Shown: positions 30,538 through 47,037, counted from the stretch's first letter. The stretch: 64,000 nt of DNA from Myxococcota bacterium (GCA_029243605.1 JAQWRT010000033.1:1147-65146), one strand, 5' to 3'. Notes: generated by a model not told the origin, from the letters alone. Translations and numbers: made by a program.

Positions 30538-30704
30538 ACAACCCCTCCTTCGGCACGGAACCGTAAGTCATCGGGCGGGGACCGAGGACAGGATCGGGGT
30601 GGTACTTGGCGGAATCAAGAACGAGTGATCGATTCCCCCGCCTTCCCAAAAATCCAGGTTGGCCATCAGAGATTCTTCCCCGCCGACCTCTGCATACGAG
30701 GCTC

Positions 30705-32792
30705 ATGAAAACTCTTCCCCGGCTTGCTGCGCTGATGCTCCCCCTCCTGCTCGCGGCATCCCTCGGCCATGGCGTCGAGCGTGAGACGGCGCTTTTCGTC
30801 GAACCCCCGGGCCTCGAGCCCGACATCCAGTTCTGGATGCAGATCTACACCGAGGTGGACAGCGAAAGCGGCCTGCTTCACGACTACCGGAACATTGACG
30901 TGGTCTACGGAGAGATCGACCTCCCCAGGGGTTTGAGCACGAAGGCCGAGGACCGCTACCTCGAAAAAGAAAAGGACCATTACCGCAAAATCCTAAAAAC
31001 CCTGGCAACGGGTAAACGGACAAAGCTCAGCCCCGAAGAGAAGCGAGTGCTGGCTCTCTTCCCCCCAGGCGTGTCCAACAAGGAACTCAAAGCCCACGTC
31101 AAAAGGATTCGCTTCCAGCAGGGACAGGCCGACCGTTTTCGCGCGGGTCTGGTCCGCTCGGGCGCCTATGCCGATCATATTCAGGAAATTCTCGGGGAAA
31201 TGGGCCTTCCTCCCCAACTCGCTGCTCTTCCCCATGTGGAATCGTCCTATAGCCCCGAAGCCTATTCGAGGATTGGCGCGTCAGGACTCTGGCAGTTCAC
31301 CCGGGCGACCGGGCGCCGCTTCATGCGCGTCGACCAGATCGTGGATGAGCGTCGGGACCCCTACAAATCCACCGCTGCGGCTGCCCGTCTGCTGGCCCAG
31401 AACCTCCGGGCGACAGGATCCTGGCCCCTAGCGATCACCGCCTACAACCACGGGGCGTCGGGCATGCGGCGGGCCAGTCGCAAGCTGGGGCACAAGAATA
31501 TCGAGAAAATCATTCGGGAATATAAAAGCCGGCGCTTCGGCTTCGCCTCGCGAAACTTCTACGTCGAGTTCATCGCGGCTTCCCGAATCGCCGAAGACCC
31601 CGAAGCCTTTTTCGGCCCAATTTCAATGGCCTCGCCCACGCAATACGAAACCATCGCCCTGCCCTTCTACATCTCGGCAGAAGCCATGTCCCAGGCCCTC
31701 GACTTGGATCTTCAGAGCATGAAGGCGGCGAACCCATCGCTCTTGAGCCCGATCTGGAACGGCCAAAAGCGGATCCCCCGAGGCTTCGAATTCAAGGTTC
31801 CCGTGGCCCTGTTGAAGCGACCGCTATCCGCGTCCATCGCGACCCTTCCCCGGCGCGAACTCTTCACCGCCCAGACCCGCGACAGCTTCCATATCGTCCG
31901 GAGAGGCGAGACCCTCTCTGCCATCGCCCAGAAGTACAGGGTGCCCGTTCGGGAATTGGCGAGCTTGAATGATTTGCGAGACCGCAACCGTATTCGGGTG
32001 GGTCAGAAGCTGCGACTGCCCATCGAGCAAGCCTCGACGGGCTCCACCCCAGGCGAACTCGTGATCTCGGTTCCCGAAGACGGGCTCTACACGGTACGCC
32101 GGGGCGACAACCTCACCCTGATCGCCCTGCGCTTTGGTGTCGATGACGAGGAACTCTTGCGGGTCAATGACATACGGGATCGTCACCGCATCAACGCCGG
32201 CCAGGTGCTGCGACTTCCGGGCTTTGCCCCCACCCAACCGAGTCCCACCGATCCCGGAACTCGGGCCTCGACGAAGCAATCCCTCCCACCGGGCACAACG
32301 CCACCAAAAACCACGGCCCCGAGTTCTCCCCCACCGAACCTTCGAGCCGATCCGAGCGACTACCTCGTCGCAGGGAACGAGACCATCGAGGTTCAATTCG
32401 GCGAGACTCTCGGGCATTACGCGGAATGGCTCGACATTCGCGCCCAGGAATTACGAACCCTCAACGGCCTCAGCTTTGGGGAGGCCCTGCCGATCCACAG
32501 CCGCCTGAGACTCAACTTCAAGCGGGTCTCGCCCTCTATCTTCGAAAGGCAGAGAATCGACTACCACCTCGATATCCAGGAGCAGTTTTTCTCCGCACGA
32601 GAAATCGTTGGAACCCGAACACATAAGCTCCAACGCGGCGACTCGATCTGGGTGCTGGCCCATCAGAAATTCAAGGTCCCCCTCTGGCTGCTCCAGCAGT
32701 ACAACCCCGACGTCGATTTCGAGACGGCGCCAGCAGGGACTGCCATCGTCACCCCAGTGCTCGAGAAACACGCCCCTCCGGATAATCCCTGA
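30705..32792 (+). CDS. Lytic murein transglycosylase with LysM domains (MltD-like)
   Basis: PHVESSY, ASGLWQF, AYNHG; LysM repeats HIVRRGETLSAIA and YTVRRGDNL. Confidence 0.9.
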   Translation: MKTLPRLAALMLPLLLAASLGHGVERETALFVEPPGLEPDIQFWMQIYTEVDSESGLLHDYRNIDVVYGEIDLPRGLSTKAEDRYLEKEKDHYRKILKTLATGKRTKLSPEEKRVLALFPPGVSNKELKAHVKRIRFQQGQADRFRAGLVRSGAYADHIQEILGEMGLPPQLAALPHVESSYSPEAYSRIGASGLWQFTRATGRRFMRVDQIVDERRDPYKSTAAAARLLAQNLRATGSWPLAITAYNHGASGMRRASRKLGHKNIEKIIREYKSRRFGFASRNFYVEFIAASRIAEDPEAFFGPISMASPTQYETIALPFYISAEAMSQALDLDLQSMKAANPSLLSPIWNGQKRIPRGFEFKVPVALLKRPLSASIATLPRRELFTAQTRDSFHIVRRGETLSAIAQKYRVPVRELASLNDLRDRNRIRVGQKLRLPIEQASTGSTPGELVISVPEDGLYTVRRGDNLTLIALRFGVDDEELLRVNDIRDRHRINAGQVLRLPGFAPTQPSPTDPGTRASTKQSLPPGTTPPKTTAPSSPPPNLRADPSDYLVAGNETIEVQFGETLGHYAEWLDIRAQELRTLNGLSFGEALPIHSRLRLNFKRVSPSIFERQRIDYHLDIQEQFFSAREIVGTRTHKLQRGDSIWVLAHQKFKVPLWLLQQYNPDVDFETAPAGTAIVTPVLEKHAPPDNP

Positions 32793-34659: not shown

Positions 34660-35859
34660 CTAGAGAAAATCGGTGAAATCGACTCCGCCGTTGACCCGGA
34701 GAGACTCCACCACGTGGCGAACCACCAGCAAAGCCGATCCATCAACCGTCATGTTGTCGACGATCGGGACGTTATTCCGATCGGCCTGCTCGAGGAGATA
34801 GCGCTGGATCTTCAGGATCTCCTCAAGCCTCTCAACATAGCGAGCCGCGTCCCGGGCTCGTTGCCGGCGTGCCCGAGCTTCGAACTGACTCTCGAAGGCC
34901 TGCTCATCCAGACGGCCCACCATCAGGAAGAAAACGTGGGCGCGGTCCGCGTATTCCTCTAAATCGATCAAGCCGGGCACCAGCGCGACCCCATCGAGCA
35001 CGATGCTCGTATTTTCTTCGATAGCCCGGTCCAGCATCGCGCGAACTCCCACCGACACCGTCGATGCCTGGGAGAGGAATCCGTCGATAACCGGGTCTTC
35101 TTCGCGTCCCAGAGCCGGTAGCTCCCGGTAGGCATCGAAGGAGGAGACGTGGATCGCAGGCATCAGGTCCGGCGAAAGCATGATGCGCATGATATGTCGA
35201 ATAGAATCGGTCGAGAGCATGCGGCTGACACCGAGTCGCTGGGCAACCGCCAAGGCAAGAGAAGTCTTCCCCACCCCCGCAGTCCCGCCCAGGAGAATGA
35301 TGACCGGCTTCTCGGGTTCCTCGAATTTCCGCCAGACGAGATAGCGCTGGGCGACGCGGTTGCCGAAGCGTTCGAGAAGAGCGTCGTAGGCAAACCGACG
35401 AAGCTCGACCTGAGTCACCTCCTCGGTCCCTCGCTGAATCAAGTTGGCCTCGATCACGCGGGCCACCTCAAAAGCATCATCGGGGGCCAGGGATGCGGCC
35501 AACAAGCTCTGGGATAGAGTTCCCTTCGAAAAATGAGTACTGCCGCGGTTCCCCACCACCTGGAGGGTCGCCGGCAACTGAATCGGCTGCTCGCTCTCGG
35601 CCCCCTCGCCGACGATCTCGTGCACAATTTTGGCCAACTCGGCACGTTCCACCCGGCCGCGTCCCTGGATCATGCCCGACACCTGGCCAGCGGTGGAATA
35701 GGCTTCGTCGAAACCGATGCCCCGAGCCATCAGGGAATGAACCATGATGCCGCGCATATAGGGGCGCTCGGCACCGGATTCCTCGACCACCAGAACACGC
35801 GTTCCCGCCCGAGCGGAGTCTTGGCTTCCCGGATCGTTTTTGTTCTTTTTAGCCGACAA
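34660..35859 (-). CDS. 2-phosphoglycerate kinase-like protein with two ATP-cone-like domains
   Basis: PYMRGIMVHSL and FSKGTLSQSL cones; ILLGGTAGVGKT, STDSIR, HVSSF; start uncertain. Confidence 0.8.
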   Translation of the reverse strand: MSAKKNKNDPGSQDSARAGTRVLVVEESGAERPYMRGIMVHSLMARGIGFDEAYSTAGQVSGMIQGRGRVERAELAKIVHEIVGEGAESEQPIQLPATLQVVGNRGSTHFSKGTLSQSLLAASLAPDDAFEVARVIEANLIQRGTEEVTQVELRRFAYDALLERFGNRVAQRYLVWRKFEEPEKPVIILLGGTAGVGKTSLALAVAQRLGVSRMLSTDSIRHIMRIMLSPDLMPAIHVSSFDAYRELPALGREEDPVIDGFLSQASTVSVGVRAMLDRAIEENTSIVLDGVALVPGLIDLEEYADRAHVFFLMVGRLDEQAFESQFEARARRQRARDAARYVERLEEILKIQRYLLEQADRNNVPIVDNMTVDGSALLVVRHVVESLRVNGGVDFTDFL

Positions 35860-36038
35860 AAGACAACACCTCTGAGACACAATGTACGACCCGCGCGGCG
35901 TCAGCGCCGGAGGCCGGGGCGGGCGATCTAAAACGGACGCGACGGCGTGCGGGAAGATCCCGCAGAGTCAATTCAACACGCCAGCTGTCCGGGCGGGCCA
36001 AAAATGGCCGCAAATCCTTCAGAAAGCCTGACAAAGCA

Positions 36039-36097
36039 CTAATTGGCACAAATTAGCTCTTTTTTGGGTTGACTTCTAGGGCAGTAAACCGTTACTT
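36039..36097. promoter_or_regulatory. Promoter region with two dyads in divergent intergenic spacer
   Basis: CTAATT-N6-AATTAG (36039-36056); TTGACT at 36069; AGTAA-ACCG-TTACT (36083-36096). Confidence 0.5.
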
Positions 36098-36239
36098 CGT
36101 TGCCAGAGATCGAAGATCTCCTTGCCGCCAGACCCCCAGCGAGCGAGCCGGAGAACGGAGTGTCGCGATTTTTCTCCCGCACCAGTCCTGGGCATGGGCG
36201 GTTTCCCTTGCCCGGATCTCGGGTTCAGGGGCCAGGCGA

Positions 36240-36800
36240 ATGAGTTCGCCCAGCGCCCATCCACCCCTGGCCGCGCCTTCCGAGGTGCGTCCCCCGACTC
36301 GGCGACCCACTCCGCGGAGCGAGGCCAGCCGATCCGATAGCTCGGAACTCTTCCCTACCCGGGACGTTCTCGAGATCGTCGGAGTCTCCCGCAGGCAACT
36401 CCAGTACTGGTCCCAAACCAATCTGGTGCGTCCATCGCTCCGAACCGTGGGCGGACATCATCGATACAGTTTCGAGGATCTCGTCACCCTCAAGGCGGTT
36501 CGTCGTCTCATCGACGCCGGCATCTCGGTCCAACGCATTCGCAATGGAATCCGGATGCTGCGTGAAGCCTTGAGAAGCGGGTCCCGGCCCCTAGGCGAAC
36601 TCACCCTGATCGCGACCGGCGATCTTGTTCTCGTCCTGCCCGAACAGAGCGACTTCGAAGTCCTCCATGGGCATGAATGGATTTTTCCGATCAGCGAATT
36701 TCGTCGAGAAATCGATGCCCGAGCTGAAGACCATCGCCGCAAATCGAAGGACAAACACACAAGAGGAGGGGCCCCGAATTTTGAACCGAACCCCGTCTAG
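36240..36800 (+). CDS. MerR-family HTH regulator
   Basis: VLEIVGVSRRQLQYW, GGHHRYSFEDL, LIDAGISVQRIR. Confidence 0.9.
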   Translation: MSSPSAHPPLAAPSEVRPPTRRPTPRSEASRSDSSELFPTRDVLEIVGVSRRQLQYWSQTNLVRPSLRTVGGHHRYSFEDLVTLKAVRRLIDAGISVQRIRNGIRMLREALRSGSRPLGELTLIATGDLVLVLPEQSDFEVLHGHEWIFPISEFRREIDARAEDHRRKSKDKHTRGGAPNFEPNPV

Positions 36801-36904
36801 GCACGGAGCCCCACCCATGTCCACAAAGGGAAGCGCGACCAGAAGAAGCTCGCTGGAAAACGTCTCGAATTGCTCGGAAATATTTGGCAACCGGGGGATG
36901 AGCT

Positions 36905-37981
36905 ATGCGGACCATTAGCATCGTCAATCAGAAGGGTGGCTGCGGGAAGACCACGACTACGGTCAGCCTGGCGGGAGCCCTCGCCGGGGACGGTTTTGCC
37001 GTTCTCGTCATCGATATGGATCCCCAGGCCCATGCCAGCATGGCCCTGGGAGTCGATCCAGAAGAGATCGAGGAGAATCTCTACGAGGTCCTGGTCGAAC
37101 CCGATGCCAGCGGTCGCCTGGATGGAGTGGTCGTGAACGCATCCCGGGGAATCGACCTCGCACCCGGGGGCATCGTTCTCTCCGCCCTGGAACAACGACT
37201 CGCCGCCGAAAACCAGGAAGCGCGAACCGAGCGTCTGGCCGCCGCCTTGGGCTCCCTGAGGAGCCAGTACGATTTTGCCCTGATCGATTGCCCCCCGGCG
37301 GTGGGATTGCTCACCTTCAACGCCCTGAGGGCTTCGCAAGAGGTGATCGTCCCGCTGGAAACCAGTTCCTTCGCGATCGACGGGGTTCAGAAACTCCTGG
37401 AAACCCTCGCCCTTCTGATGGAGCGAGTGGGTCACACTCTCTCCGTTCGGGTGTTGCCAAGCCTCTATGACGGGCGGACGCGCTATGCGCGCGAGACCCT
37501 CGGCGAGATACGCGAACTCTTCAAGGAACTCTGCTTCGACTCGGTCGTGCGGCTCAATGTGAAGCTGCGGGAAGCCGCTCGGGAGGGCATGCCGATTTCG
37601 CTCTGGGCCCCCGATTCCAACGGGGCCGCCGACTACGCTTCGGTGGCCATGGAAGTCGCCATGGGACCACCCGCCGAGATCGAGGCCGGGAGCGATACCG
37701 AGACTGAAGCGGCCCGGGAGGTGGTAATCGAATACCGCGATTCCCAAGCCAACGACGTCCGCATTGCGGGTGATTTCAACGGCTGGGTCCCCGACCGGAA
37801 CGTTCTCTCGCGGGTGGAGGCCAGCGGGCGCACCCGAGTCTGGGTCAAGGTCCTCAAACTGCCCCCGGGCGTCTACCAATACCGCTATTTCGTCGATGGC
37901 CAATGGAGAGTGGACCCAGAAAACGAGGAAAGTTCTCCCGGACCCATGGGCCAGACCAACTCCGTTCTCTACGTCCGCTGA
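36905..37981 (+). CDS. ParA/Soj ATPase fused to C-terminal CBM48 (AMPK-beta-type glycogen-binding) domain
   Basis: NQKGGCGKTT, DMDPQ, IDCPP, NVKLREA; then IAGDFNGW...LPPGVYQYRYFVDGQWRVDP...G.TNS. Confidence 0.9.
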   Translation: MRTISIVNQKGGCGKTTTTVSLAGALAGDGFAVLVIDMDPQAHASMALGVDPEEIEENLYEVLVEPDASGRLDGVVVNASRGIDLAPGGIVLSALEQRLAAENQEARTERLAAALGSLRSQYDFALIDCPPAVGLLTFNALRASQEVIVPLETSSFAIDGVQKLLETLALLMERVGHTLSVRVLPSLYDGRTRYARETLGEIRELFKELCFDSVVRLNVKLREAAREGMPISLWAPDSNGAADYASVAMEVAMGPPAEIEAGSDTETEAAREVVIEYRDSQANDVRIAGDFNGWVPDRNVLSRVEASGRTRVWVKVLKLPPGVYQYRYFVDGQWRVDPENEESSPGPMGQTNSVLYVR

Positions 37982-37990
37982 CTCGAAAAT

Positions 37991-38779
37991 ATGGCGCGAA
38001 ACCTCTCAGACGTGCTCCACTATTTTGGTCCCGAGTTGGCCGAAGCCGAGGCCCAGGTGCGGCCGGCCGAGGACGCGCCCCGGGCCGAGGCTCCGGCCTG
38101 CCGGATCATCGGTGTCCCCATTGGCAGCCGGGACGTCGTCCGGGCGGCGTTCGCCTGGAATATCGCGGTGGAGGTGGTCCGGCTCGGAGGTCGAGCAACG
38201 ATCCTCTGCCCGGACGAGACGAGCCCTTCACCGCTCTGGCCCCAGGCCAGCACCGGCCCACTGGGGGTGGCACTGCGCCCGAGCCTGGCCCAAAACCTCG
38301 ACGAACTCCTCGCCAGTGCCCAGGATTGGGCCGCCAACACCGCCCACAAAAGCGAGAGCGACCTTCTCCTCGTCCGAATTCCCCCCGAGTGGATCAGCGC
38401 AGCCGTTGCCCCCTCCCCACTCCTCGATTGGGTCCTCCTCTTCACATCCTCCGAAGAAGCCAACCTCCAGGAAGCCCTCGCGCTCACCCGCAATGTCGTC
38501 GACCGTCACCCCGGGGCAAGGGTCGGCATCACGATTCACGGAGCCCAAAGCCGAGAGGAAGCCGAGACCGCCTTCGGCAACCTGGCCCGGGCCTCGCGCG
38601 AGAAAACAGGGCGTGATGTCCGCAGCTACGGCCTGCTGGTCGACGATCTCGATGTCTACCGAGCGATCGTCGCCCAACGCCCCATCGGCCTAGCCCATCC
38701 ACAGTCTCCAGCCGCGCGTGCCCTCCGCGATGTCGCCGAACTTCTACTCGGGGACATCGAGGAAGACGCCCGTGGTTGA
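37991..38779 (+). CDS. Degenerate MinD/FlhG-like protein lacking Walker A
   Basis: AWNIAVEVVRLGGRATIL; C-terminal YGLLVDDLDVYRAIVAQRP..HPQSPAARAL; no GKT/S. Confidence 0.65.
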   Translation: MARNLSDVLHYFGPELAEAEAQVRPAEDAPRAEAPACRIIGVPIGSRDVVRAAFAWNIAVEVVRLGGRATILCPDETSPSPLWPQASTGPLGVALRPSLAQNLDELLASAQDWAANTAHKSESDLLLVRIPPEWISAAVAPSPLLDWVLLFTSSEEANLQEALALTRNVVDRHPGARVGITIHGAQSREEAETAFGNLARASREKTGRDVRSYGLLVDDLDVYRAIVAQRPIGLAHPQSPAARALRDVAELLLGDIEEDARG

Positions 38780-39383
38780 ATTCGCAAGAATCCCGCCGGG
38801 TTCGGCCAAGGCCATCCGGGCCGAGGCTCGCGAGCAATTGGGACAGCTGGGCCAAGGGCTCCGGGTCATCGCCGAGGACGTGATGGGCCTCACCTCCTCC
38901 ATCGATCTGCTCGCCGTAGACCCAGACGGGGGCCTGGTGGCCATACTCATCGCCAGTGAGCCCGACCAGGAGCCCGCCCTGCTCGGCCGGGGGATCGCGC
39001 ACAGGGCATGGGCCGACCAGCGGGCCAAGGATTGGTGCACCCTCGCCCCGGAACTCGCCATCGCATGGGATCGGCCCGCGCGCTGCATCCTCCTGGCCCC
39101 AGATTTTGGAGAGGAGACCCGGCTGGCGGCCCGCACCCTGGGCTCGGACACCGTCCTCCTGGTCCGCTATCTCGCCCTGCGCGCCGGAAAGGAGACCGGG
39201 CTGCTCCTCGAACCCCTGGCACACTTGCCCGAGCCCGGGAGGGCGGCCCCATCGGAGCCGACGATCAAGCCCCTCCCCCGGTCCCCGACCCAGGAAATGG
39301 ACCCACTGCCCGAGTTTCGCAGCAAGCTCGCCGATCGCGACCTACGCACCCAGAGGGCCCCTACGCCTCTCCCTGCGGGGTAA
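38772..39383 (+). CDS. NucS/PD-(D/E)xK-fold-like protein, apparently inactive
   Basis: IDLLAVDPDGGLVAIL lacks ExK; RCILLAPDF; overlaps upstream gene. Confidence 0.55.
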   Translation: MVEFARIPPGSAKAIRAEAREQLGQLGQGLRVIAEDVMGLTSSIDLLAVDPDGGLVAILIASEPDQEPALLGRGIAHRAWADQRAKDWCTLAPELAIAWDRPARCILLAPDFGEETRLAARTLGSDTVLLVRYLALRAGKETGLLLEPLAHLPEPGRAAPSEPTIKPLPRSPTQEMDPLPEFRSKLADRDLRTQRAPTPLPAG

Positions 39384-39553
39384 TTAACCCAGCTCACGCG
39401 ACCCGGGGATCTTGAGAGATTTTTCGGGGTTTTCCACATATTTTTGACACCTCCGAGACTATCCCGGCCACATCACTAGGAGAGGAACTGCGCCGCTCAG
39501 GCAATGCAGGGAATCCACTGGGAACTGAATCTGGGAATTCAGGGGGATATGGC

Positions 39554-40210
39554 ATGCGAAATCCGGAAAATGAAGGAATAGGAACCGGGAGAGCGACTGG
39601 GACGGCAAAAACTCTCGCCGGTCACCCGCACCGCGGCGCTCCCGCAACGCATTCGAGGGCCGACTCGCCCGACGAAATCAGTGATCGCGAGATCATCGAC
39701 CGCGTGAGCAAGGGCGATCGCGAAGCGTTTGAGCTTCTCTACGAGCGCTATTTCACCCGTATCTACCGCTTTATCGCGCGTCGCATGGGCGTCCGCGCAG
39801 ACGTCGAGGAGACCACCCAAGAGGTCTTCATCGCGGTCTTTTCGAGTCTCGATTCTTTTCGCGGCGAGGCTCCGTTTTCCGCCTGGATCTACGGCGTAAC
39901 CCGACGAGTCATCGCGAGTCGCTTCAAGCGCAAGCGCCACCCCATGGTGCCGCTGCTCGAAGAAGACTCCGAAAGCAACACCGCACACGCCAGCACGCGA
40001 CCAACCCCCCTCGAAGAGTACGAATGCCAGGAGCGCATCGAAGAACTGACGGCGGCGGCTGAAAAATTGAGCGATGAACAAAAGGAACTCTTCCGCCTGC
40101 ATCACATCGACGACCACTCCATCAGCGAGATCGCGATCCGCATGAGCAAGAGCGAGGACGCGGTCAAGTCGAACCTCTACCGCGCACGAAAGGTTCTGCT
40201 CCCGCGCTGA
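39554..40210 (+). CDS. ECF sigma-70 factor
   Basis: GDREAFELLYERY, QEVF, FSAWIY, SISEIA...VKSNLYRAR. Confidence 0.93.
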   Translation: MRNPENEGIGTGRATGTAKTLAGHPHRGAPATHSRADSPDEISDREIIDRVSKGDREAFELLYERYFTRIYRFIARRMGVRADVEETTQEVFIAVFSSLDSFRGEAPFSAWIYGVTRRVIASRFKRKRHPMVPLLEEDSESNTAHASTRPTPLEEYECQERIEELTAAAEKLSDEQKELFRLHHIDDHSISEIAIRMSKSEDAVKSNLYRARKVLLPR

Positions 40211-40315: not shown

Positions 40316-40921
40316 ATGTCTTCTCCCAAGCCTCCCACGCCCCCAAGTCGAGCGCCGCTCTCCACCGCCTTGATCGCCCTGGTAGGCTCCGAAGCCCAGG
40401 GCAGTAGCCAGCGCCTGGAATTCACGGCCCGGGGTGAGCGGGTGCCCGCGCGCTGGCTCCGCCCTATCGCTCAGGCCGGTAGCCCCCTGCCCCTGGCGAT
40501 CGTCGTTCACGACGAGAGCGAGACGACTCACCAACCCACCCTGGCGGGCTACCACGCCGAGGCCGTGGCCACCCTGGACATGAACTGGCCGCTGACCGGA
40601 TCGCGACGCAGTCCAAAGATGAGCCTCCGCCTACTGGAGGCCCTCGCGTCGCCGGGGGAGAGTCCGGTGCACAAACTCCTGCTCGAACAATTCCGCGCCC
40701 AGGCTCTGGAGGAGTTCGCCTGCCTTCTCGAATCCGCTCAGAGCCTGGCGGTTTCAGAGATCAGACACGTTGATTTCATCCTGGCCCCCGCGCGAGAGCG
40801 AAACCCGGACGCGGCCCAGCCCCTCTTCGCCCGCCTCTCGGAGCCCAGGCATTCCCAGGGGATTTCTGCCGCAGCAGCGCCCGAGAGGCTCCGGGATTTC
40901 CTCGACGATTTGCTCCCCTGA
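40316..40921 (+). CDS. Hypothetical protein (partial alpha/beta-hydrolase-like)
   Basis: RLEFTARGERVPA, PLAIVVH, WPLTGSRRSPK. Confidence 0.55.
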   Translation: MSSPKPPTPPSRAPLSTALIALVGSEAQGSSQRLEFTARGERVPARWLRPIAQAGSPLPLAIVVHDESETTHQPTLAGYHAEAVATLDMNWPLTGSRRSPKMSLRLLEALASPGESPVHKLLLEQFRAQALEEFACLLESAQSLAVSEIRHVDFILAPARERNPDAAQPLFARLSEPRHSQGISAAAAPERLRDFLDDLLP

Positions 40922-45328: not shown

Positions 45329-45498
45329 GACCGGCGAAGACCCCGGTCTCAGGCCCGCAGCCGAATCGCCCTGAAACTCGCGTGTCGAACCCGTAGAGGC
45401 GCCTGGCGCCGCGCTCCCTGAGCCTCCCGTGTGCTAGGGTGCCGCTCGCCCCGCAGACTCCTCCCGGGCCATTCCCCTCAACCATGAGCGAGCCGACG

Positions 45499-46137
45499 AT
45501 GGCGATCCTGATCAAGCGCTATGCGAACCGGAAGCTCTACAACACCCAGAGCAGCCGCTACATCACGCTGAAGGGAATCGCCGAACTTCTCGATGCCGGC
45601 GAGGAAGTCCGGGTCATCGACAAGCAGACCGGGGAAGACATCACCTCGGTGGCGCTCTCCCAGATCCTAGTCGATAGCAAGCGCTCGAATACCCAACCCC
45701 CGGACACCCTCCTGACCCAGATCCTGGGGCGCGGGGGCGACGCCCTCTACGACGCCCTGCGCAAGGGCGTCGACGATGCCAGCGAGGGCATCGGCGATCT
45801 GCAAGAACGCATGCGGCGCATGGTAGGCACCAGCGATGAGGCCCAGGCTTCGCCGGACGAGGACGATGAGTTCGAAGCGGACGAGGCCGCAGAACCCCAG
45901 GCCTCGACGAAAAAACAGGGCTTCTTCCAGGCGCCCCCGGAATTGGATGATCTCGTCCAGAACGCGGTGGAGCGCGTCTTCCGGCTCCTCGACCTTCCTC
46001 GCCGATCGGATGTCGAATCCCTCAACCAGAACCTCGAACGGGTGGCCGGCGCCGTCGAAGCCCTCGAAGAGGCCTTCGCCGAACGGACCGGCGGCGAAAG
46101 CGATGACGAGACCGAGGACTCCGAAGAATCTCCCTAA
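45499..46137 (+). CDS. PhaR-like polyhydroxyalkanoate regulator with phasin-like C-terminus
   Basis: IKRYANRKLYNTQSSRYITL...TGEDIT; C-terminal LDLPRRSDVESLNQNLERV. Confidence 0.85.
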   Translation: MAILIKRYANRKLYNTQSSRYITLKGIAELLDAGEEVRVIDKQTGEDITSVALSQILVDSKRSNTQPPDTLLTQILGRGGDALYDALRKGVDDASEGIGDLQERMRRMVGTSDEAQASPDEDDEFEADEAAEPQASTKKQGFFQAPPELDDLVQNAVERVFRLLDLPRRSDVESLNQNLERVAGAVEALEEAFAERTGGESDDETEDSEESP

Positions 46138-46239: not shown

Positions 46240-47037
46240 ATGTCTGCCGTACTCATCGAAAGAGACGCTCACACCCTGATCGTCACCCTCAACCGCCCGG
46301 AGAAGAAGAACGCGGTCAACTGCGAGGTGATGTGTCGCCTCTATGACGCCTGGCGCGAACTCGACCGGGACGACGACCTGCGGGTGGGGATCCTCACGGG
46401 CAATGGCGACACTTTCTGCGCCGGCATGGACCTCTCGGAAATCCCCAAGCTTCGAACCGGGAAGCCCGAGAATGAATTCATGGAACGCGTCATGAGCGAG
46501 CCGGCGGTGATCTACGGCTGCTGGCTGAAGACCGACCGCCCCTCCAAGCCCGTGATCCTCGCCGCCGAGGGATTCGCCCGAGCCGGCGGCACCGAAATCC
46601 TCCAGGGAACCGATATCCGAGTGGCCGGCAAGAGCGCGCTCTTCGGGGTGACCGAGGTTCAGCGCGGTCTCTTCCCCATGGCGGGTTCGGCGGTCAGGCT
46701 GCGACGCCAGATCGGCTATGCGGTGGCCGCGGAGATGCTTCTTGCCGGGGAGGACCTACCCGCCACCCGGGCTTTCGAACTCGGATTGATCAACCACGTG
46801 GTCGAGGACGGACAGGCCCTCACCAAGGCTCGTGAGATCGCGCAGCGCATCTCGGCCAACGGCCCCCTCGCCGTGCGCGGCATCCTGGCCACCCTTCGAG
46901 AGACCGAGACCCTGAGCGAAGAGGACGCTTTCCCCATCGAGCAGCAACACGGACTCAAGGTAATGGCGTCCAAGGATGCCATTGAGGGCCCGCGCGCCTT
47001 CCTCGAAAAGCGACCGCCCAATTTTACGGGGGAATAA
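46240..47037 (+). CDS. Enoyl-CoA hydratase/isomerase
   Basis: LNRPEKKNA, FCAGMDL, AGGTE, AFLEKRPPNF. Confidence 0.93.
   Translation: MSAVLIERDAHTLIVTLNRPEKKNAVNCEVMCRLYDAWRELDRDDDLRVGILTGNGDTFCAGMDLSEIPKLRTGKPENEFMERVMSEPAVIYGCWLKTDRPSKPVILAAEGFARAGGTEILQGTDIRVAGKSALFGVTEVQRGLFPMAGSAVRLRRQIGYAVAAEMLLAGEDLPATRAFELGLINHVVEDGQALTKAREIAQRISANGPLAVRGILATLRETETLSEEDAFPIEQQHGLKVMASKDAIEGPRAFLEKRPPNFTGE

Follow-up and report, generated by a model that had tools for sequence, protein, structure and literature searches.

A 64,000-nt stretch of DNA from a Myxococcota bacterium (GCA_029243605.1 JAQWRT010000033.1:1147-65146), analysed at its full length and hereafter called the window, contains a compact gene module built around a ParA-type ATPase fused to a domain that resembles the carbohydrate-binding module (CBM) of AMPK beta subunits. 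Four genes lie in the same direction on the + strand within positions 36240-39383. They encode a protein with a MerR-type helix-turn-helix (HTH) (36240, ATG, to 36800; 186 aa, with a longer TTG frame opening at 36069), the fusion protein ParA-CBM (36905-37981; 358 aa), and two proteins named here P3 (37991-38779; 262 aa) and P4 (38772, GTG, to 39383; 203 aa). ParA-CBM and P3 are separated by 9 bp (37982-37990), and P3 and P4 overlap by 8 bp (38772-38779), provided that GTG 38772, which sits inside a frame opening at 38718, is the start of P4, as we infer. The co-orientation and tight packing reported in an initial annotation of this DNA are borne out by the listing of open reading frames (ORFs). 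Across 32 orthologous loci, the overlap between P3 and P4 is 8 bp in 15, 4 bp in 6, and longer in 9, with a gap in the remaining 2, when the P4 start is taken as the first start codon no more than 40 nt from the P3 stop. The start-stop overlaps are conserved, and we propose that P3 and P4 are translationally coupled.

ParA-CBM carries an ATPase domain of the ParA type (residues 1-255; 36905-37669; Pfam AAA_31, 4.6e-47) and a C-terminal AMPK-beta-type CBM-like domain (residues 273-358; 37721-37981; Pfam AMPK1_CBM, 4.7e-13, residues 273-357) in one protein; the CBM_48 model gives only 21.6 bits, below its cut-off. The catalytic motifs of the ATPase are intact. In an alignment of 37 sequences (that of the window and 36 homologues), the Walker A motif KGGCGKT, the DxD motif, and the Walker B aspartate are invariant (K10, K15, D37, D39, and D128 in all 37 sequences), and the Walker A motif has the deviant form (KGGxGK[ST]) of the ParA proteins of ParABS systems. 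ParA-CBM is 36% identical to the canonical ParA of the same genome, which is encoded in a parA-parB pair on contig C71; the sole parB_part match of the genome lies there, beside the canonical ParA, and neither P3 nor P4 matched a ParB family in searches of Pfam and NCBIfam. Since the canonical pair is located on another contig, ParA-CBM is an extra, orphan ParA, which agrees with the earlier proposal that the module serves something other than chromosome partitioning.

Within the class of Myxococcota to which this genome belongs, the CBM is conserved as strongly as the ATPase domain, with mean pairwise identities of 68.2% and 69.9%, respectively, and 23.4% for the linker between them (residues 256-272). 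The 37-sequence alignment has 28 invariant columns in the CBM. This domain matches the glycogen-binding domains of AMPK beta-2 and beta-1 (E 8.5e-10 to 1.8e-7, the former value for the beta-2 domain 2f15) and the glucan phosphatase SEX4. Columns aligned with F-N-N-W, Y-K-F-F-V-D-G-Q-W, and a later Asn of AMPK are invariant or nearly so, giving a family pattern of F-N-x-W, Y-[KR]-x-F-V-D-G-Q-W, and Asn when aligned to 2f15. W294, R327, W334, and S353 are invariant and N352 is nearly so; W294, R327 (at the position of an AMPK Lys), W334, and N352 occupy what we take to be the sugar-contacting positions of AMPK beta. In two loci a short low-complexity tail replaces the CBM of ParA (L035, 3871-4983 in genome G038, and L027, 5775-6812 in genome G025), for which an assembly or frameshift error is a possible cause. 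Both loci keep P3 and P4 despite the CBM-less ParA, and L035 also keeps MerR.

The matches to the AMPK beta domains and SEX4, together with the near-complete conservation of the two Trp, the Lys replaced by Arg, and the Asn at the presumed sugar positions, would suit a ParA that positions or tethers a granule of glycogen or another alpha-glucan, with the cargo bound directly by the CBM. We regard this explanation as very unlikely, because searches for glycogen-pathway families in the genus of the window found none of them. The GH13 alpha-amylase family and glycogen phosphorylase are each found in 0 of 7 genomes of the genus, the GT5 glycogen/starch synthase domain and GH77 each in 0 of 5, GlgC gives no match above the cut-off in 5 genomes, and neither do the GlgA and GlgB models in the window's own genome. 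Of 14 control genomes, 8 to 14 gave positives in the same searches. The genomes of the genus are metagenome-assembled genomes (MAGs) that are 80-94% complete, so each single absence means "not found"; the joint absence of every tested family in 5 to 7 genomes is hard to blame on gaps, although an unconventional glucan pathway is possible. The ligand of the CBM in this genus is therefore unlikely to be classical glycogen. ParA-CBM itself is the only AMPK1_CBM/CBM_48 match of its genome. The sole marginal GH57 match was rejected because PF01522 (5.8e-22) marks it as a polysaccharide deacetylase. Of 41 relatives, 23 have GH13 and 13 the phosphorylase, yet P3 is found in 39, and the lineages of L035 and L027, which have several GH13 genes, are those in which ParA lacks the CBM. 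A literature search on glycogen granules and ParA-like proteins found nothing relevant. That no glycogen pathway is recognisable in a genus with invariant residues at the putative CBM sugar site is the most useful new fact of this analysis, and it warns against inferring a cargo from the name of a domain.

The product of the gene after ParA-CBM, P3, has no Pfam family, and its only NCBIfam match is to archaeal MinD, at 0.007 and in the C terminus. The AlphaFold2 model of P3 (predicted local distance difference test score, pLDDT, 83.4; predicted template modelling score 0.80) has FlhG as its best Foldseek match (4rz2; E 1.1e-13, template modelling score 0.65), followed by FleN and MinD, with 1hyq at 8.2e-12; the FleN-FleQ complex is among the best structural matches. 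Consistent with this fold, a profile built from 45 P3 sequences matches FlhG at E 9.6e-12 over residues 155-256. Where FlhG has the P-loop S-G-K-G-G-V-G-K-S, P3 has P-I-G-D-R-D-V-V-R-A, with Asp, Arg, and Ala in place of the two Lys and the Ser, in an N-terminal alignment that is individually insignificant. G45, D48, and R51 of P3 are invariant. P3 is thus an ATPase fold that has lost its P-loop, yet the former site is still under constraint. The model ends in a long helix (residues 240-261). Similarity to FlhG and FleN, which are MinD-like regulators of flagellar number, extends to fold and profile, in contrast to the missing Walker A motif and the absence of flagellar genes near P3. The possibility that P3 is a recent duplicate of ParA-CBM was also considered; hhalign gives a probability of 0.4% for the pair, so P3 is no recent copy of its neighbour. 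An antisense ORF of 157 aa lies within P3 (38020-38493, - strand), and its GC content at third codon positions (0.80) is above that of many real genes nearby, a reminder that ORF length and third-position GC are misleading in a genome of 62-65% GC. The + strand reading is preferred because P3 has 449 homologues at E<=0.001 in a protein collection and a confident fold.

The first 15 residues of P3 (37991-38035; M-A-R-N-L-S-D-V-L-H-Y-F-G-P-E) form a conserved peptide that we propose as a contact with ParA. Its consensus in 45 sequences is M-P-R-D-L-x-D-V-L-H-Y-F-x-P-E, with L5, V8, F12, and P14 invariant and R3 nearly so, and the overall pattern is a basic residue followed by L-x-D-V-L-x-x-F. 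A disordered linker of variable length and composition comes after the peptide, and pLDDT is below 50 for residues 1-32. The peptide is kept in the sister family (R-R-S-L-G-D-V-L-H-H-F and M-P-R-N-D-L-S-D-V-F-H-L-F) as well as in genus g36 and genus g30 (M-A-K-K-L-D-D-V-F-D-L-F). It is also kept (M-V-R-G-I-A-D-V-L-D-A-Y) in a 183-aa remnant of P3 in genus g37 that falls below detection by the P3 profile; this remnant is located directly after ParA-CBM in loci from which MerR and P4 are absent (L137, 5100-5651 in genome G197, and also L136, L138, and L139). The peptide is the most persistent feature of the gene that follows ParA-CBM, being present in every lineage examined. ParB, MinE, and McdB act on their ATPases through tethered peptides of this architecture, in which a basic residue is combined with a brief amphipathic segment. 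The N terminus of the ParB of this genome reads M-S-D-K-R-R-A-L-G-R-G-L-G-A-L-I, and the P3 peptide may be said to resemble it loosely, a likeness that serves as a lead only.

P4 likewise has no Pfam family. Its AlphaFold2 model (pLDDT 86.7, and above 90 up to residue 150) consists of a fold spanning residues ~1-150, followed by a disordered linker and tail. The fold is that of the nuclease domain of NucS/EndoMS (2vld_A, Z 13.5, root-mean-square deviation 2.0 over 108 residues; 5gke_A, Z 13.4; Foldseek E 2.5e-5), with the next fold at Z 10.2; Shedu, Can2/Card1, and restriction enzymes are among the nearest folds behind NucS. P4 aligns to the C-terminal nuclease domain (residues 126-233 of the 2vld chain). 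It differs from NucS/EndoMS in being a single domain of ~150 residues that lacks both the N-terminal DNA-binding/dimerisation domain and the (D/E)xK motif, which is missing from the third strand (residues 55-60); D45, which is nearly invariant, is the one residue of the catalytic triad that is kept. A P4 profile collects 940 cluster representatives at E<=0.001, with lengths of 123-291 aa among those listed. Near the C terminus, residues 182-191 (39315-39344) carry a short motif, F-R-S-K-L-A-D-R-D-L, whose consensus in 39 sequences is F-R-S-G-L-x-D-x-D-L, with L186 invariant and F182 and R183 nearly so. NucS likewise has a flexible C-terminal tail that bears a brief conserved motif, and in NucS this tail binds a sliding clamp. 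Terminal peptides on flexible linkers, N-terminal in P3 and C-terminal in P4, are an anatomy newly described here. The descriptions of P3 as a "dead MinD/FlhG" and of P4 as "dead NucS-like" in the initial annotation hold up, given the FlhG/MinD fold of P3 with its Walker A motif replaced and the NucS nuclease fold of P4 without (D/E)xK. So does its picture of one active ATPase with two pseudoenzymes, as the motifs of ParA-CBM are invariant and the catalytic motifs of both partners are lost.

In a sample of 301 Myxococcota, ParA-CBM is matched at E<=1e-99 in 54 of the 58 genomes of the class of the window (its own family, 19/19; the rest of the order, 25/29; the sister family, 10/10), and 51 of these 54 strong matches include the CBM. 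In the 243 other Myxococcota, the best match is 4.7e-53, and it is the ATPase part only that is found among the matches listed. Of 41 relatives, 39 have a P3 match, which is strong and full-length in 37; the genomes of the remaining two are 78% and 99% complete. Strong P3 matches are restricted to the order, and weak full-length ones occur in the sister family. A scan of species-representative genomes with the P3 alignment retrieved 93 relatives, of which 80 were kept; all of these are uncultured MAGs, labelled as Myxococcota, Deltaproteobacteria, or others.

Synteny was counted in 35 loci of the order, leaving out genome G004 (a 2.9-kb contig) and genomes G026 and G035 (weak partial P3; G035 was examined as locus L055). 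ParA-CBM adjoins P3 in all 35, P4 comes next in 32, and MerR is upstream in 30, with a divergent 2-phosphoglycerate kinase-like (2PGK-like) gene upstream in 31; on the downstream side, 32 loci have an extracytoplasmic function (ECF) sigma factor gene, 29 the gene for a protein named here P7, and 23 a DsbA-like gene. The arrangement 2PGK / MerR-ParA-P3-P4 / ECF sigma-P7 is maintained. When 51 loci are scored by profile, all four genes are detected in 29, ParA and P3 in 11, ParA, P3, and P4 in 5, ParA alone in 5, and MerR, ParA, and P3 in 1; the profiles were built partly from the loci scored, and these counts refer to detection only. Taken together with the two CBM-less ParA loci, these patterns define ParA and P3 as the core of the system, with MerR, P4, and even the CBM as additional parts. 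Relative to the nearest genome, ratios of nonsynonymous to synonymous substitution rates (dN/dS) are 0.13 for ParA-CBM, 0.19 for P3, 0.21 for MerR, and 0.26 for P4, compared with 0.06-0.27 for neighbouring genes. In the class, the cassette is near-universal, single-copy, syntenic, and under purifying selection, and it behaves as a chromosomal operon passed on by vertical descent. Conservation of the gene neighbourhood in relatives had been named as a check on the initial annotation, and the position of ParA-CBM beside P3 in 35 of 35 loci, along with the overlaps and locus patterns, exceeds chance and confirms a conserved, tightly coupled module.

A "ParA-CBM system", in which ParA is fused to AMPK1_CBM, has been described computationally in a recent preprint (bioRxiv 10.64898/2026.10.19.760177, October 2026). 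A second variant of the system adds an inactive ParA and an inactive restriction endonuclease (REase), ParA-CBM is sporadic over several phyla, and its CBM is fast-evolving (bioRxiv 10.64898/2026.10.19.760177). The operon in the window has a ParA-AMPK1_CBM fusion, a neighbouring inactive protein of the ParA superfamily (P3), and an inactive REase-fold protein (P4). The operon is a member of that variant, and its architecture is already published. The ParA-AMPK1_CBM protein, the adjacent inactive ParA, and the inactive REase-fold gene are common to both descriptions, whereas the MerR gene and the terminal peptides are described only here. The main text of the preprint has 0 mentions of MerR and 0 mentions of Myxococcota (bioRxiv 10.64898/2026.10.19.760177). 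The fast-diverging CBM and patchy spread on which the preprint bases its immune prediction are not seen within the class, where the CBM is about as conserved as the ATPase domain (68.2% vs 69.9%) and 54 of 58 genomes have a strong match to ParA-CBM.

The preprint predicts, in its section 29, an immune role in which carbohydrate sensing leads to ParA multimerisation (bioRxiv 10.64898/2026.10.19.760177). In such a conflict system, the CBM would act as a lectin that senses an infection-linked carbohydrate or its depletion, multimerisation of ParA would limit the invader, and the dead REase would sense DNA. The faster evolution of P3, and most of all P4, relative to ParA is consistent with this, as are the fold neighbours of P4 after NucS (Shedu, Can2/Card1, and restriction enzymes). 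For the class studied here, an immune function nonetheless appears unlikely. The system is near-universal, single-copy, and syntenic rather than patchy, its CBM is slow (with the identities and the 28 invariant columns given above), and dN/dS is 0.13-0.26 for all genes of the module. PADLOC returned weak domain-level matches only (HTH, P-loop, methyltransferase) and no system-level match, and the module is surrounded by housekeeping genes, without an integrase or tRNA gene nearby. Searched against 50,697 phage records, the CBM region gave nothing, and against 72,556 plasmid records it gave a single match, at 31%; this match is on a 2-Mb Vibrio replicon, outside any ORF of at least 120 aa and with no ParA beside it. 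The usual signatures of defence are thus missing in the class, with which a fixed immune function may still be compatible.

The reading we prefer, with a probability of roughly 0.45, is that the module is an orphan ParA switch governed by the tethered peptides of its two pseudoenzyme partners, with a housekeeping role and a CBM ligand other than glycogen. We infer a mechanism in which ParA-CBM, as the sole enzyme, would act as a switch that dimerises in an ATP-dependent manner and would probably bind the nucleoid as well, while P3 and P4 would be its dedicated non-catalytic partners. Each partner would present a short docking peptide on a flexible linker, N-terminal in P3 and near the C terminus in P4. 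The basic-then-amphipathic peptide of P3 would bind the ParA dimer and set its ATPase cycle, as the peptides of ParB, MinE, and McdB do, and the translationally coupled P3 and P4 would form the adaptor or cargo side. The CBM would tie the ATPase to a ligand that in this genus is probably not classical glycogen and could instead be a different glycan or the surface of a protein, and MerR would be an accessory transcription factor or DNA anchor. A prediction of the three-chain complex of ParA-CBM, P3, and P4 has a score of 0.51, and one with an unrelated protein in place of ParA a score of 0.58.

Several observations weigh against the peptide-governed housekeeping switch. P4 evolves faster than any other gene of the operon (mean identity 37% in 39 sequences), and a word-seeded search of 5.8 billion proteins found only 8 matches to it, which would suit a role in conflict. 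The occurrence of CBM-less ParA in two loci with P3 and P4 implies that the CBM is not essential to the core, and the invariant CBM residues on the presumed sugar positions of AMPK beta argue for a glycan ligand. The likeness of the peptides to that of ParB is loose, and class-wide synteny may stem partly from a low rate of rearrangement rather than from function. In addition, the much wider survey of the preprint places its ConB5 clade among immunity branches of the ParA tree and calls the CBM fast-evolving, and both statements also favour the immune role.

Comparison with known systems shows what the preferred switch would share with them and where it would depart. The module resembles ParABS (Soj/ParA and Spo0J/ParB) in its deviant Walker A motif and in a downstream partner with an N-terminal basic peptide on a linker. 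However, P3 is no ParB, having a MinD/FlhG fold without the HTH or CTPase domain, and the ATPase carries a CBM. McdAB of carboxysomes, PomXYZ, and MinDE likewise pair a ParA/MinD ATPase with small, fast-evolving, partly disordered adjacent partners. Here, by contrast, the partners are pseudoenzymes of known folds, and it is the ATPase itself that has a putative ligand or cargo domain, whereas it is usually the cargo that carries the activator. A broader claim is more doubtful, namely that the cassette represents a new design of ParA machine with a housekeeping role throughout the class, having a CBM for a non-glycogen ligand and two pseudoenzyme adaptors (one FlhG-like and P-loop-less, one a dead NucS-like protein) that each bear a tethered ParB-like docking peptide. 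If it were true, ParA-CBM systems would not be immune devices, or not only that, and the dead nuclease may link the system to DNA or the replisome.

Orphan ATPases of the ParA/MinD type organise many bacterial cargos, yet cargos are known for only a minority of these ATPases. ParA-CBM is a fixed component of an entire class of abundant marine Myxococcota that are uncultured; a literature search on the positioning roles of such orphan ATPases in Myxococcota found nothing specific. An active ATPase with two pseudoenzymes would be a clean case of dead enzymes turned into regulators of the ParA cycle. The competing readings (immunity, glycogen positioning, and a housekeeping switch) differ in predictions that can be tested cheaply.

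The first gene of the module has an N-terminal MerR-type winged HTH (Pfam MerR_1, 4.7e-14; 52.7 bits against a cut-off of 21.6). In an alignment of 31 orthologues, conservation is lacking over the first ~37 residues, the HTH covers residues 38-102, and a second conserved region extends over residues ~116-160; the latter (R-P-L-x-E-L-V-L-V-A-T-G-D-V-V-L-V ... G-Q-E-W) is unlike the usual MerR coiled coil. In the Atlas, the protein falls among MerR_1 clusters, and some of its structural neighbours have a HicB-like antitoxin domain. MerR is detected by profile in only 30 of the 51 loci and is therefore an accessory part. Upstream of it, the intergenic region between the 2PGK-like gene and MerR contains a conserved block (36033-36100) that is a candidate promoter or operator. 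It comprises an inverted repeat (36033-36062; 12-nt arms, 83% complementary) and a TTGACT hexamer, and at ~36040-36100 the sequence ...ATAGC.C.TTTTTGGGTT..CTTC.A... is invariant in five aligned genomes of the genus, with unconserved flanks. A consensus promoter scan of the module region gave 0 sites.

At the other end of the operon, a terminator-like hairpin with a T-rich tail (39405-39444; hairpin 39405-39434) begins 22 nt past the P4 stop. The scanned 3.9 kb contains three terminator-like sites against 3.3 expected, so that it is the position of the hairpin that supports it as the likely end of the operon. Four marine RNA libraries from two studies yield contigs with 0-1 differences that cover parts of MerR, P3, and P4 and that span the junctions of ParA with P3 (37900-38072) and of P3 with P4 (38682-38832). 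The data are contigs only, with possible DNA carry-over, and they cover a small share of the stretch, most of ParA being uncovered; they weakly favour expression and co-transcription of the module.

These candidate regulatory elements bear on another explanation, in which a FlhG/FleN-like P3 and ParA-CBM would modulate MerR or the downstream ECF sigma factor upon sensing of a ligand by the CBM. The FleN-FleQ complex among the structural matches of P3 (FleN being an antiactivator), MerR upstream in 30 of 51 loci, the ECF sigma gene downstream in 32 of 35 loci of the order, and the conserved intergenic block with its inverted repeat are all in line with such a transcription switch. Yet the sister-family locus L048, which keeps ParA-CBM and P3, has neither MerR nor the ECF sigma factor, and no MerR is found by profile in any of nine sister-family loci. 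There is no enhancer-binding protein nearby, the terminator-like hairpin separates P4 from the sigma gene, and a fold shared with FleN proves no function. On balance, a transcription switch seems improbable.

The divergent 2PGK-like gene (34660-35880, - strand) encodes a P-loop kinase with an ATP-cone (NCBIfam PRK04220, 1.3e-91; Pfam ATP-cone). Besides the loci of the order counted above, it adjoins the module in sister-family and other loci (L048-L051 and L053-L055), and across the class it is found divergently beside ParA-CBM even where MerR is absent. The kinase is part of the genomic context, through either functional coupling or stable gene order. Downstream of the module, the ECF sigma gene (39554-40210, +) precedes the gene for P7, a family-less protein of 201 aa (40316-40921, +), and the two genes are found downstream throughout most of the order. 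With 33% median identity and a dN/dS of 0.27, P7 is as fast-evolving as P4, and in the completely read sister-family locus L048 a P7-like gene comes directly after P3, without the sigma gene.

The remaining neighbours are housekeeping in character and include genes for NUDIX, HisG, a LysM lytic transglycosylase, RlmN, TrmB, a DsbA-like protein, a phosphoglucomutase/phosphomannomutase (PGM/PMM), PhaR, an enoyl-CoA hydratase, and riboflavin synthase. Scans of the window detected no tRNA genes or Rfam elements, and the neighbourhood of the module has no integrase, flagellar genes, or enhancer-binding protein. The transglycosylase, an SLT-type protein of 728 aa with several LysM repeats, is encoded 4 kb upstream of the module (30606-32792, +). 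A PhaR-type regulator of the accumulation of polyhydroxybutyrate/polyhydroxyalkanoate (PHB_acc_N, 1.2e-24; 45439-46137, +) is encoded beside the enoyl-CoA hydratase (46240-47037, +), and the organism may store polyhydroxyalkanoate rather than glycogen.

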